DNA of 64,000 nt from Pirellulales bacterium (GTDB taxonomy: Bacteria; Planctomycetota; Planctomycetia; Pirellulales; JAEUIK01). The translations under genes were made by a program, and so were the position numbers. This document shows positions 17,381-22,239 of the stretch, one piece after another. Positions within the stretch are counted from its first letter, which is position 1. Every line of letters begins with the position of its first letter. The notes beneath the pieces are model-generated. The model was not told the origin of the DNA and ran no database searches. It saw only the letters and a program-made list of their open reading frames with translations. Location of the stretch: assembly GCA_050184475.1 (NCBI GenBank), contig JBFXAH010000011.1, positions 75,208-139,207 of the forward strand, written 5' to 3'.

Positions 17381-17522
17381 CTGTCTCGTTGTAGTACACA
17401 GACTCGATGTGGCCAGCGAGTCGCAGATCGCCAACCGCGTTCGGCCACCACAACCACCACGAACGCAATGGATCGTCGCGGCGAGGTTGACGCGGTCGGC
17501 TCCTGGCGACCGCTGCGAAGGG

Positions 17523-17612
17523 TTACTTCTTCTTCTTCGCGGTCTTCTTCTTGGCGGCCTTCTTCTTGGTCGCTCCACCCTTCTTCGCAGCGGCCTTCTT
17601 CTTCTTTGCCAC
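17523..17612 (-). CDS. 29-aa lysine/alanine-rich micro-protein (H1/Hc1-tail-like), not in the ORF track
   Basis: Minus strand reads GGAGGAagaactGTG GCA AAG AAG AAG AAG GCC GCT GCG AAG AAG GGT GGA GCG ACC AAG AAG AAG GCC GCC AAG AAG AAG ACC GCG AAG AAG AAG AAG TAA, giving (M)AKKKKAAAKKGGATKKKAAKKKTAKKKK. The SD GGAGGA sits 6 nt before the GTG. The in-frame stop upstream at 17697..17699 has no earlier start after it. A terminator lies downstream. Confidence 0.5.
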   Translation of the reverse strand: MAKKKKAAAKKGGATKKKAAKKKTAKKKK

Positions 17613-18182
17613 AGTTCTTCCTCCTAAAAAGTGTCGCGGTGACTTTCGCTCGGTCGTCGCTTGAGAACACTCTCGAGGTTCGGCGACCGACGATACTCAC
17701 CCTTGACTAAAACGCTCCATTCGTTTCTGCCTGAGTGAAGGGTTCCGCGTCGCGTTGGCTGCTTCGCTGACCTTCGATCGCTCTTCGTCAACTGCTCGAC
17801 GACTCGTTTCGTTGGTCGTGGCGACGCGCGATAGCGACTCGTTCCCTCACTCTTGGATGTTAGTTGTACGAATTCCCTGAAATAGTGCAACAGAATTTCT
17901 TCGTTTGGCGCGCCACTTTTTTGAAAATTTTTTTGACGCCGTTGCGCCCTCGAAGCGCTCGCGCGGAGCAATTCAACAACCGCGCGCGACCAGATGGCAC
18001 CGCGCGCCAGCGCGCAGCGCGCCATCGCGCGACGGCGCTTCGATTTCAGTGGCACGCGCGCTGCGCCAGCACGCGTCACTCGTTCGTGAAGCGCTCTCAG
18101 AGCACGTGGCGCAGCGTCCAGATGTGGCCATGCATCGAGCGAATCGCGCAGAAAACGCCCGACCGCGCCCGCGATTTGCGCG

Positions 18183-19380: not shown

Positions 19381-19953
19381 TCAACGGCCGTTTGGCACGT
19401 AGCGACCGTTCACATCGTAGGGCAGATTGAGCTGGCTGTCGTTGATGCCTTGGGCTTCGGCTTCGAGCTCGCGCCAGTGCCAGGGGGGCATCGGATTGCT
19501 GTGCGACCACAGGCCGCGATGCCGGCGGCGAGCCATCCGTTCGGCGCTCGCCAGGTCGCGGCTGTAAGCGCTGGCGCGCGACTCGTCGACCAACGGCAAG
19601 CGCCAGGCCAAACCTTGATCGACCAGCTCGCGCCCCAGGTCGCGACCGTCGACCAATACGCGCCCCTCGACGCGATCATCCTTGTGCGTTCGCGTCACCT
19701 CGACAATCGCCTGCCGGCCACCGGCCCAGCGCACCAGCGACATGCGGGCATTGCCGCCATAAGGCTGCGGCATTTCGGGGGCGTCGACTCCGGACAGCCG
19801 CACGATCCGCTGCCGAGTGCCGAATTCGATCACCACCACGTCGCTGTCGGGGATATCGATCACGCGGCCCGCCAGCTCTTCGGCCAGGAGAGGACAATTG
19901 CCAAGTATCGCGCAAGACGCCACGACGAGCGCCCAACCAAGAACGGATCGCAT
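19381..19953 (-). CDS. secreted thermonuclease (SNase/TNase-like) domain protein
   Basis: Signal peptide MRSVLGWALVVASCAILG. GRVIDIPDSDVVVIEFGTRQRIVRLSGVDAPEM...GRVLVDGRDLGRELVDQGLAW matches the staphylococcal-nuclease OB-fold pattern. Confidence 0.8.
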   Translation of the reverse strand: MRSVLGWALVVASCAILGNCPLLAEELAGRVIDIPDSDVVVIEFGTRQRIVRLSGVDAPEMPQPYGGNARMSLVRWAGGRQAIVEVTRTHKDDRVEGRVLVDGRDLGRELVDQGLAWRLPLVDESRASAYSRDLASAERMARRRHRGLWSHSNPMPPWHWRELEAEAQGINDSQLNLPYDVNGRYVPNGR

Positions 19954-19980
19954 CGAAAACTATCTCCCGCTCAGGACCGC

Positions 19981-20445
19981 TTATCGTAACAGCGGTCGCA
20001 AATCGACCGGTTTCTTCGCGCCAGTCACGAATTCTACGAATAACCCGATCCTGCTCAACTCCTGCTGGATTCTGGCCTGCGAGGTTGGCGCACCTGCGGA
20101 CGAGATAATCAGGCCCTTTACTCTGGTTCGCGGTGGCCTGAACTCGGCGGGCAATCTAGGGACAACGGCTTGAAAAGTGGACGTAAGCTGGCTCGCTGCC
20201 CTCTCAAAATCTCTTCCCTTGAACTCGACAAAGATCAGCAAGGCTGCCTTCGTCCCTTCTCGATAAAAGACCAGCGCGTCGCAGACTCTGCCCTGCAGTC
20301 CCAACGCCGCACGGCACTCTTCACAATCCATGCGAAAGAACAAGATGCGTTCCGTAACGCGAGGCTCGATCCTAATGCCTACCCTGTTCTCGCTAAGGGA
20401 AGTCCCGTTGTGGAAGCAGTTCCACACCAGACTATGAAAGACCAT
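19981..20445 (-). CDS. 154-aa partner of the island ATPase; putative PD-(D/E)xK-fold nuclease with an N-terminal Cys/His cluster
   Basis: ORF 19981..20475. The ATG at 20445 (or TTG at 20475) overlaps the ATPase stop by 14 (or 44) nt. The motif RVCDALVFY-x9-ALLIFVEFKG fits the D...(D/E)xK layout. CFH...CEEC lies upstream. Low GC. No family recognised by eye. Confidence 0.5.
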   Translation of the reverse strand: MVFHSLVWNCFHNGTSLSENRVGIRIEPRVTERILFFRMDCEECRAALGLQGRVCDALVFYREGTKAALLIFVEFKGRDFERAASQLTSTFQAVVPRLPAEFRPPRTRVKGLIISSAGAPTSQARIQQELSRIGLFVEFVTGAKKPVDLRPLLR

Positions 20446-21841
20446 GTTCCCCGGCCCCGTTTTCCACGCTAGCAATCTTGGAGTACAGGTTGGCGACGTA
20501 GTCCGATTCGTCAGCGAAACTCTTCACGTCGATAATCCCATCGTCAACGATGTCCTTGACTTCGCCGTCCTCTTGGAACAAGTACGCGGCGACTTTGTCT
20601 GGGGCCAAGAAGGCGTCGGCGCTGCCGAGCTTGGTCTCGCCGGCCAGCTTGGCTTGAGCCTTGCGCGACTTTGCCCCGGCAGCCATCATGTTGTTCAAAT
20701 GATCGACAAAATACGGACTGTGCGTGGTGACGACGATCTCCAGGCCGGCGTTGACGAGCATGGCGAAAAGCTCGACAAGTTGAAGTTGGGCTTCTGGATG
20801 CGCGTTCATTTCAGGCTCGTCGATGACAAGAACGTCGCCCGGTACGGCAAGATGTCGCAGAATCATGTCGAGACCGGCGAGAGAACGGACGAGCGACGCG
20901 ACGGCGTGCATCCGCAGTTTTGGGCCATCGCTCGCGAAGTACTCGAAGGTCGCGCCGCCTTTGTCGGCGCGACTTGAGCTTACGCTTCCACCCAGTACTT
21001 GGTGCTCCAACACCGAGGAAGCGGTGTTGATTGCCGATTCTGTTAGCTTTGGACGCACATACCAGAGCAATCTCAATAGATTGATGAAATCGGCAGTTGG
21101 TTCGTTGTAGATTGCAGACAAATCACGGGTCATCGACCTTTCGAGAAAAAGGGGACTAAATGCGACGAGAGCTTTCCTTTCAGCAGGTAAAGCAATTACT
21201 CGCTGCTTCGTCGAAACGAGCATTCGACTCAGCCAGGACTCCACGGTCGCACGACCTTGATCGCGGTTAGTTGCCCCAGTGCTATCCCGCCAAGACTCAC
21301 GAAACATAGGTTCGCCTTCAGCAGTGCCGAGTGCGCTTACTGTGAGCTCCCCTGTTGGCGGGAACCTAGTTATTACTAGTCGACGGATCGTTCCGTTTTG
21401 CAGAAATTCGTCGCGCGGCAACAGCAAATCTGTGAATGACTCGCTCAGATCCTCTTCCGGAACTGCCAGCGTCCTTGCGAGTGCGGCGCCCTGAAGTTTG
21501 AGCGAAACTTCCAACGGCAATTTTAATCCGCGAAGAAGATCATCTCGAGAAACTACTACCGATATCGAGTCTTCCGACTCGGTCGCCATCGACTTCAATA
21601 CCTGAGAACTGTTGGCCGAGGTTGTCCTGTTGAGATAGTCCGCAAAAACAGAGAGTCGTGCGGTCTCGCTCCTGTACCCGACGCCGACACCAATGCTCGT
21701 CGAAATGTCCCTGAGCAGCCCATACAGCGCGTAGGCCGTCCAGGTCTTATTGGTATTGTTCTTGCCAATGAAGACCGTGAACGGCTTGATTTCCAGCTCG
21801 GCCGATTTGATCCGGCCAAGATTCGAGACTTTAAGTTTCAA
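20432..21841 (-). CDS. AAA_15/AAA_21-type ABC (SMC/OLD-like) ATPase, defence-system-type
   Basis: 469 aa. N-terminus MKLKVSNLGRIKSAELEIKPFTVFIGKNNTNKT (variant Walker A). Long insert, then the signature-like ASLVRSLAGL, Walker B VLVIDEPEMNAHP and H-loop VVTTHSPYF. TTG start. GC is clearly lower than in flanking genes. Confidence 0.85.
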   Translation of the reverse strand: MKLKVSNLGRIKSAELEIKPFTVFIGKNNTNKTWTAYALYGLLRDISTSIGVGVGYRSETARLSVFADYLNRTTSANSSQVLKSMATESEDSISVVVSRDDLLRGLKLPLEVSLKLQGAALARTLAVPEEDLSESFTDLLLPRDEFLQNGTIRRLVITRFPPTGELTVSALGTAEGEPMFRESWRDSTGATNRDQGRATVESWLSRMLVSTKQRVIALPAERKALVAFSPLFLERSMTRDLSAIYNEPTADFINLLRLLWYVRPKLTESAINTASSVLEHQVLGGSVSSSRADKGGATFEYFASDGPKLRMHAVASLVRSLAGLDMILRHLAVPGDVLVIDEPEMNAHPEAQLQLVELFAMLVNAGLEIVVTTHSPYFVDHLNNMMAAGAKSRKAQAKLAGETKLGSADAFLAPDKVAAYLFQEDGEVKDIVDDGIIDVKSFADESDYVANLYSKIASVENGAGEHGLS

Positions 21842-21990
21842 CGACCGCTCCCGGAAGCATGGGGCGTCTCGGCAAGCTGATTTGCTGGCTCTCTAAATAC
21901 TAATTCGGCATGCTGGTCGCGAACCGTGTGCCCCCCTGAGGGGCGATCCGTCGCAACCACTAGAAGTAGTTCCAAAACCGTCCAAAGCAG

Positions 21991-22041
21991 GGGGACAGTC
22001 CCATTTTGCTCGGAGTACCTTGTAAAATCGGGACAGTCCCC
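21991..22041. promoter_or_regulatory. pair of identical 11-12-bp palindromes GGGACAGTCCC in the island's upstream region (operator candidate)
   Basis: GGGGACAGTCCC at 21991..22002 and GGGACAGTCCCC at 22030..22041, spaced 39 bp start to start. They lie 150-200 bp upstream of the ATPase start on the minus strand. Confidence 0.4.
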
Positions 22042-22239
22042 GACGGATTTGAAACCGGTTCTAGAAATTACCCTGCCCAAAAAACGACTGCCGAAGTGGA
22101 CTATTCGATCGGCACGACCGTCAGACTCGCCGCCACTTCTCGATTGTAGCGCGCCAGGGGAAGCCAGTTAAACCGGCCAGCCCCAGCGTGTCCGAGCCGA
22201 CCAGCGCCAGACTGCTGGGAGTGCGAAACACTCCTTCGC

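Follow-up and report, generated by a model that had tools for sequence, protein, structure and literature searches.

Gene Organization of the Locus

The locus occupies a small part of the window, which is the whole 64,000-nucleotide stretch of Pirellulales DNA that was analysed, and consists of two overlapping genes that encode an OLD-type ABC ATPase and, downstream of it, a short partner protein (Table 1). The first-pass annotation had placed a small partner gene here, and the open reading frame is indeed present, with all of the residues quoted for it (C10, H12, C41, C44, D56, E74 and K76) found in its translation. The codons of the three proposed catalytic residues lie at 20280-20278 (D56), 20226-20224 (E74) and 20220-20218 (K76). 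A program-made list of open reading frames also offers a TTG start at 20475, giving 164 aa; this start was rejected in favour of the ATG, because homologues, with N-termini of the form MxFNRLVWNC..., line up with the latter.

Table 1. Features of the ATPase-partner locus and its surroundings, in window coordinates.
Feature	Position	Strand	Description
Predicted SNase-like gene with signal peptide	19381-19953	minus	Pfam SNase 6.9e-14; begins 27 nt past the partner stop
Low-GC island	19800..22200		GC 0.51-0.60 vs 0.65-0.70 in the flanks (composition profile)
Partner ORF, predicted WonB-like PD-(D/E)xK nuclease	19981..20445	minus	154 aa from the ATG at 20445
Gene overlap, 14 nt, ATGGTCTTTCATAG	20432..20445	minus	ATPase stop codon vs partner start codon, read from the sequence
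WonA-like OLD-type ABC ATPase	20432..21841	minus	469 aa, TTG start; Pfam AAA_15 4.5e-19, AAA_21 2.6e-10
Intergenic region upstream of the operon	21842..22239	minus	Candidate sigma-70-like site and GGAG

The overlap between the two genes implies that they would be co-transcribed and translationally coupled. The related locus L006 has an overlap of identical length, while in L003-L005 the genes are separated by gaps of 2-20 nt. The TTG start of the ATPase gene is backed by the N-termini of its homologues and is preceded, at ~9-12 nt, by GGAG. Further upstream, a weak candidate sigma-70-like site (TTAACT-17-TACAAT, 22171-22143) was found by consensus scan only. An 80-aa open reading frame (21838-22080, minus strand), whose TGA overlaps the ATPase start as TTGA, has no support as a gene.

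The low-GC island comprises exactly these two genes and their upstream region, set between bioB and a SNase-like gene of native composition. The pair appears to have been acquired horizontally, as the drop in GC covers exactly these two genes. Scans for Rfam families and tRNAs around the locus were empty, and therefore no tRNA-linked integration site is apparent. The neighbouring genes (bioB, a beta-lactamase-family gene and the SNase-like gene) are of a housekeeping kind, and no further defence genes adjoin the pair. The SNase-like gene is not counted as a third component of the system: its GC content is native, its co-occurrence with the module is confined to contigs from the same organism, and no linkage to the module was found in any of 80 related loci. 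A second dip in GC at 17400-18000 (0.54-0.58) holds only low-complexity open reading frames, with no Rfam or tRNA match.

The OLD-Type ATPase

The ATPase carries a Walker A motif (G26-KNNTN-K32-T33), an 'LPAER222K' motif, a Walker B motif (V-I-D341-E342-PE) and an H-loop (T-T-H374-SP), followed by a conserved C-terminal extension that spans residues ~390-469. Among 37 ATPase homologues, K32, R222, D341-E342, H374 and residues of the C-terminal extension are invariant. Of the PADLOC models, PD-T4-4_A gives the best match (2.4e-48; 163.5 bits, in two stretches), followed by PDC-M47A (1.9e-40) and PDC-M29A (2.3e-11), with AriA, Old, GajA and PtuA matching at 1e-19 to 1e-7.

This places the protein in the same OLD-type ABC ATPase clade as OLD, Gabija (GajA), PARIS (AriAB) and Septu/retron Eco7 (PtuAB), systems in which, as is proposed here, an ATPase sensor controls a nuclease effector. 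The effectors of those systems are TOPRIM or HNH nucleases, either fused to the ATPase or encoded separately, whereas Pfam and PADLOC searches found neither a TOPRIM nor an HNH domain in the ATPase or its partner.

Conservation of the Partner Family

The partner has no match in Pfam, NCBIfam or PHROG, and a word-indexed homologue search returned nothing but the identical protein, encoded on two short metagenomic contigs that carry the same set of four genes. When 1.84 billion cluster representatives were searched exhaustively with HMMER, 263 passed E≤1e-3, and 42 of these also passed E≤1e-10. The 263 also lack a Pfam domain, and nearly all are ~150-170 aa in length and match from end to end. 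The open reading frame thus belongs to a conserved family of proteins of similar size.

Conservation was counted in an alignment of 131 of the 263 homologues, numbered from the ATG at 20445. D40, D56 and E74 are present in all 131 sequences and K76 and Q86 in 130, while E32 is kept in 125, C55 in 109 (83%) and C10 in 94 (72%). The catalytic residues are again invariant in an independent set, made up of the 61 best partners encoded next to an ATPase homologue in named genomes. It had been cautioned earlier that so short a pattern as D56/E74/K76 might arise by chance; with D56 and E74 invariant and K76 present in all but one of the sequences, the D...ExK pattern is not a product of chance. E32, D40 and Q86 are three further conserved residues that the first-pass annotation did not mention. 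The aspartate D56 stands in a conserved 'CD' dipeptide (C55-D56) as opposed to the canonical 'PD'.

The same alignment does not bear out a second motif, a zinc knuckle formed by C10, H12, C41 and C44 near the N-terminus. That all four residues co-occur in the window sequence is what speaks for a knuckle required for function, but three of the four ligands are unconserved: H12 is found in 10 of the 131 homologues, C41 in 21 and C44 in none, with phenylalanine the commonest residue at position 44, and these positions vary among the 61 independent genomic partners as well. Close relatives carry TDSPDG or TDSQGG at that site, and the structural model described below puts C10 on helix 2-10 and both C41 and C44 on helix 42-48 and shows no loops that resemble a knuckle. 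A functional knuckle is thus extremely improbable, and the Cys/His cluster is, as judged from the alignment, a peculiarity of the window sequence and a few close relatives.

Predicted Fold of the Partner

An AlphaFold2 model built with the alignment of 131 homologues reached a pLDDT of 96.0 and a pTM of 0.91; a single-sequence model (pLDDT 52.7) was discarded. The elements of the retained model are, in order, helix 2-10, strands 16-19, 22-25 and 32-38, helix 42-48, strands 57-63 and 69-76, helix 80-97, strand 108-115, helix 123-132 and strand 136-140. D40 comes after the strand that begins with E32, D56 lies just before strand 57-63, the E74-x-K76 pair sits at the end of strand 69-76, and Q86 is on the long helix that comes next. 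In the model, this is the canonical order of elements of the restriction-endonuclease core, and the strand-D/strand-ExK/helix succession that had been read by eye is present with high confidence. The C-terminal third is modelled as the strand-helix-strand unit that was expected there (108-115, 123-132 and 136-140).

Structural comparison leads in the same direction with less force. A Foldseek search of the PDB returned nothing below E 1e-3, and the weak matches at the top of the list are nearly all PD-(D/E)xK proteins: Mus81 (5e-3), BsmI, N.BspD6I, FokI, XisH, Card1 and the nuclease domain of Avs4. Against viral models (BFVD), the matches were UL24/UL76, the RPB5 N-domain, VRR-NUC and endonuclease I. 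Some family members also have marginal Pfam matches to UL24, DUF2726, VRR_NUC and HSDR_N, all PD-(D/E)xK families, and a profile search of PDB sequences returned nothing meaningful. A restriction-endonuclease fold is suggested by the element order and by the identity of the nearest neighbours, every structural match being weak. Taken together with the conserved triad, these results agree with the first-pass proposal that the small protein is a PD-(D/E)xK-type partner of the adjoining AAA_15/AAA_21 ATPase.

Relationship to WonAB and the Novel REase Operons

A system of this type has been characterized in the WASA-1 prophage of Vibrio cholerae (Adams et al., Nat Microbiol 2025; PMC12137116). The system consists of WonA, an OLD-type ABC ATPase, and WonB, a PD-(D/E)xK-fold variant of 140 aa. 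Both are needed for defence, which is abolished by the substitutions K34A, R182A, E300A or H333A in WonA or K71A in WonB. WonB is toxic only alongside active WonA, its activity stops translation and leaves genomic DNA intact, and it is degraded by Lon (PMC12137116). That paper relates WonAB to PD-T4-4 and to operons termed 'OLD-ABC ATPase + novel REase', for which it cites Krishnan, Burroughs, Iyer and Aravind (NAR 2020). Compared through the tables of the 2025 paper, these operons are the umbrella family of the pair described here, without a difference in kind.

The module in the window shares the WonAB architecture, with the ATPase gene first and a small PD-(D/E)xK-variant nuclease second. 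Alignment of the family profile with V. cholerae WonB by hhalign (Prob 96%, E 4.8e-9) pairs C55-D56 with WonB C52-D53, E74-K76 with E69-K71 and Q86 with Q81, and the motif D40 ... C-D ... E-L/F-K-G-x-D ... A-x-x-Q is common to both proteins. The ATPases are likewise similar: Walker B, the H-loop and the C-terminal extension align locally, and the spacings between the critical Arg, Glu and His residues are 118 and 33 in WonA vs 120 and 32 in the window ATPase (R222-E342-H374). R222 lies in a region outside the alignment and is equated with WonA R182 by its P-A-x-R motif and spacing.

There are also differences. Outside the core motif, identity between the partner and WonB is very low (BLASTP covers 38 residues only), and the partner has an additional N-terminal helix and beta-hairpin ('LVWNC..GTS'). 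The window ATPase, at 469 aa, is longer than WonA, and the stretch that separates its Walker A from its R motif holds a larger insert. WonAB resides in a prophage, whereas the window pair is chromosomal and known from sequence alone.

Close relatives of the pair are listed among the hits to the published MacSyFinder models of these modules. For the WonAB model, hit 64 is Maioricimonas rarisocia (PMC12137116, Table 4), and the window partner is 33% identical to its 'WonB' by BLASTP (E 4e-15), while the ATPase is 31% identical to its 'WonA' (E 6e-46). The 'OLD-ABC ATPase + Novel REase' model has Sorangium cellulosum So ceGT47 (locus L016) as its hit 120 (PMC12137116, Table 5); here the partner matches the 'Novel REase' over its full length with 31% identity (E 5e-19), and the ATPases are 37% identical. 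The pair in the window is thus a divergent further member of a module type that has already been described, and both its membership in this family and the identity of the partner as a nuclease are held with high confidence. The earlier suggestion that the effector is much smaller than those of known AAA_15/21-linked systems is not supported: in V. cholerae, WonB has a length of only 140 aa, and novel-REase operons were described before (PMC12137116).

Relationship to PD-T4-4

PD-T4-4 (Vassallo et al., 2022) and the PADLOC candidates PDC-M47 and PDC-M29 have the same architecture as the window pair, and PD-T4-4_B proteins share the CD...(D/E)xK...Q core with the partner family. The window partner has no match to PDC-M47B or to PD-T4-4_B (the latter at E≤1); its sole PADLOC match is a marginal one to PDC-M29B (E 0.021), a model that V. 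cholerae WonB matches at 1.2e-9. Among the 131 aligned family members, 54 match PDC-M29B, 12 match PDC-M47B and 10 match PD-T4-4_B, the last only weakly. Bona fide PD-T4-4_B proteins are longer, at ~200-210 aa, and score E 0.03 to 4e-4 against the partner-family profile; the partner at L009, for example, matches the PD-T4-4_B model at 3.6e-93, yet the family profile only at E 0.03. Assignment of the window pair to PD-T4-4 sensu stricto was rejected, as the partner does not match the PD-T4-4_B model.

Because the ATPase scores best against PD-T4-4_A, above the WonA-like PDC-M29A, the clade of the window pair is regarded as a divergent branch that may have a trigger and a target other than those of WonAB. 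A stronger version holds that the clade, marked by the joining of an ATPase like PD-T4-4_A to a WonB-like nuclease with an extra N-terminal helix-hairpin and the well-conserved C10 and C55, differs in function and has a trigger or substrate of its own; this is considered unlikely. If it were true, a well-behaved member of the clade could reveal the substrate of the nuclease.

The nature of the PD-T4-4 effector is itself described in two ways. One preprint assigns it to the HNH nucleases (bioRxiv 10.64898/2026.07.10.737580), and three other sources assign it to the PD-(D/E)xK enzymes (PMC10952713; PMC12137116; bioRxiv 10.1101/2025.07.10.664194). The CD...(D/E)xK...Q core in the PD-T4-4_B sequences that were examined favours PD-(D/E)xK over HNH.

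Gene Pairing, Distribution and Mobility

When the ATPase alignment was searched against single genomes representing each species, ~263 relatives were found among 185,579 species representatives. In the best 80 of these 263 loci, the partner-family HMM detects a partner immediately downstream and on the same strand in 72. In two of the remaining eight (L041 and L067), the contig or locus ends right after the ATPase gene; in one (L069), a partner subtype of ~300 aa stands in place of the short one; and five (L035, L046, L057, L058 and L088) are ATPase-only or decayed. The partner is frameshifted in 4 of the 72 (L017, L040, L045 and L078), including that of S. cellulosum So0157-2. The occurrence of frameshifted partners and of ATPases without a recognizable partner suggests decay or exchange of the effector. 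Four metagenomic ATPase homologues (~40% identity) each have a partner homologue of 155-161 aa directly downstream, one of which had not been called as a gene.

Related loci are found in Planctomycetota, Myxococcota, Cyanobacteria, Chloroflexota, Desulfobacterota and Thiotrichales, and among the archaea in Methanothrix, Archaeoglobus and Altiarchaeales, so that the WonAB-type family reaches into Planctomycetota and archaea. The absence of a Pfam, NCBIfam or PHROG model, together with the failure of the PADLOC B models to detect the partner, constitutes an annotation gap that leads standard pipelines to call the protein hypothetical.

The housekeeping flanks and the lack of adjoining defence genes could be taken to mean that the pair is a housekeeping factor of DNA repair or recombination, or else an inactive remnant. 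Such a role is very unlikely in view of the patchy occurrence across phyla, at the low frequency given above, and of the low-GC island in which the genes lie. Relatives, moreover, are found near terminase, IS1 and toxin-antitoxin genes, next to a second ATPase pair, on small plasmids and in a P2-like phage hotspot, and in the window both reading frames are intact with every catalytic residue present.

The surroundings of several relatives can be described individually. The contexts of L004 (362-2825), L005 (815-2443) and L006 (604-3396) are of a mobile or defence kind and include a second ATPase, a terminase large subunit and IS1; the second ATPase (AAA_21/AAA_15, 594 aa) lies just upstream, with a 198-aa gene, and the IS1 transposase is accompanied by a DUF433/DUF5615 pair. 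Bona fide PD-T4-4, a more distant relative, makes up about half of ~4-kb ColE1-type plasmids, as in L009 (Klebsiella pneumoniae pKPN6, 4259 bp) and L007 (Escherichia coli pSCU-105-5). In the P2-like Vibrio phage 1.202.O (L010), a related ATPase and a 209-aa gene lie between the repressor and integrase genes.

Proposed Mechanism and Alternatives

The best explanation of the locus, and a likely one, is a WonAB-type pair in which an ATPase licenses a nuclease for abortive defence against phages. In such a system, the OLD-type ABC ATPase, which is probably dimeric, would serve as both sensor and switch, and the partner would be a compact, divergent PD-(D/E)xK enzyme with E32, D40, D56, E74 and K76 as predicted metal-binding and catalytic residues and Q86 on the helix that follows. 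By analogy with WonAB and related systems, the ATPase dimer may hold the nuclease on its C-terminal extensions, since the extension is conserved and aligns with that of WonA. The nuclease would be harmless until infection, when ATP binding or hydrolysis by the ATPase would license it to cut host nucleic acid, with tRNA or rRNA a likelier substrate than chromosomal DNA. Cleavage would then stop translation and abort the infection. We infer from the literature on characterized relatives that the two proteins form a complex, that licensing depends on ATP, that RNA is the target and that the infection ends abortively. The conserved set E32/D40/D56/E74/K76/Q86, invariant or nearly so, and the strict pairing of the two genes offer clear targets for mutagenesis.

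The presence of a two-gene operon with overlapping reading frames, and the toxicity of over-produced WonB, might suggest a toxin-antitoxin module in which the ATPase neutralizes a constitutively toxic nuclease, and Pfam does describe AAA_21 as 'putative AbiEii toxin, type IV TA'. Over-produced WonB, however, is non-toxic without WonA or with an ATPase-dead WonA, which rules out simple sequestration, and an AbiEi-type partner is absent. A toxin-antitoxin function is accordingly regarded as highly improbable.

Within the licensed-nuclease reading, the chances that the target is RNA, either tRNA or rRNA, are judged to be about even. An RNA target is favoured because WonB spares DNA and blocks translation, because E. 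coli PD-T4-4 was inactive in vitro on all 11 DNA substrates, and because OLD, PARIS and retron Eco7 cleave tRNA. These same observations weigh against an ATPase-controlled DNA endonuclease that degrades phage or host DNA, which is deemed unlikely even though PD-(D/E)xK enzymes are mostly DNases, the structural neighbours Mus81, FokI and BsmI are DNA nucleases, and DNA is degraded in vitro by several defence systems of the nuclease-NTPase kind that contain PD-(D/E)xK domains.

A Longer Partner Subtype

Directly downstream of the ATPase, nine related loci (L047, L050, L053, L056, L062, L069, L074, L077 and L090) encode the partner subtype of ~300 aa. These proteins match the family HMM weakly, or in the case of L069 not at all, and they feature a classic 'RPDY...TIIEMKG...EHGxxQI' PD-ExK motif along with a C-terminal extension of ~150 aa.
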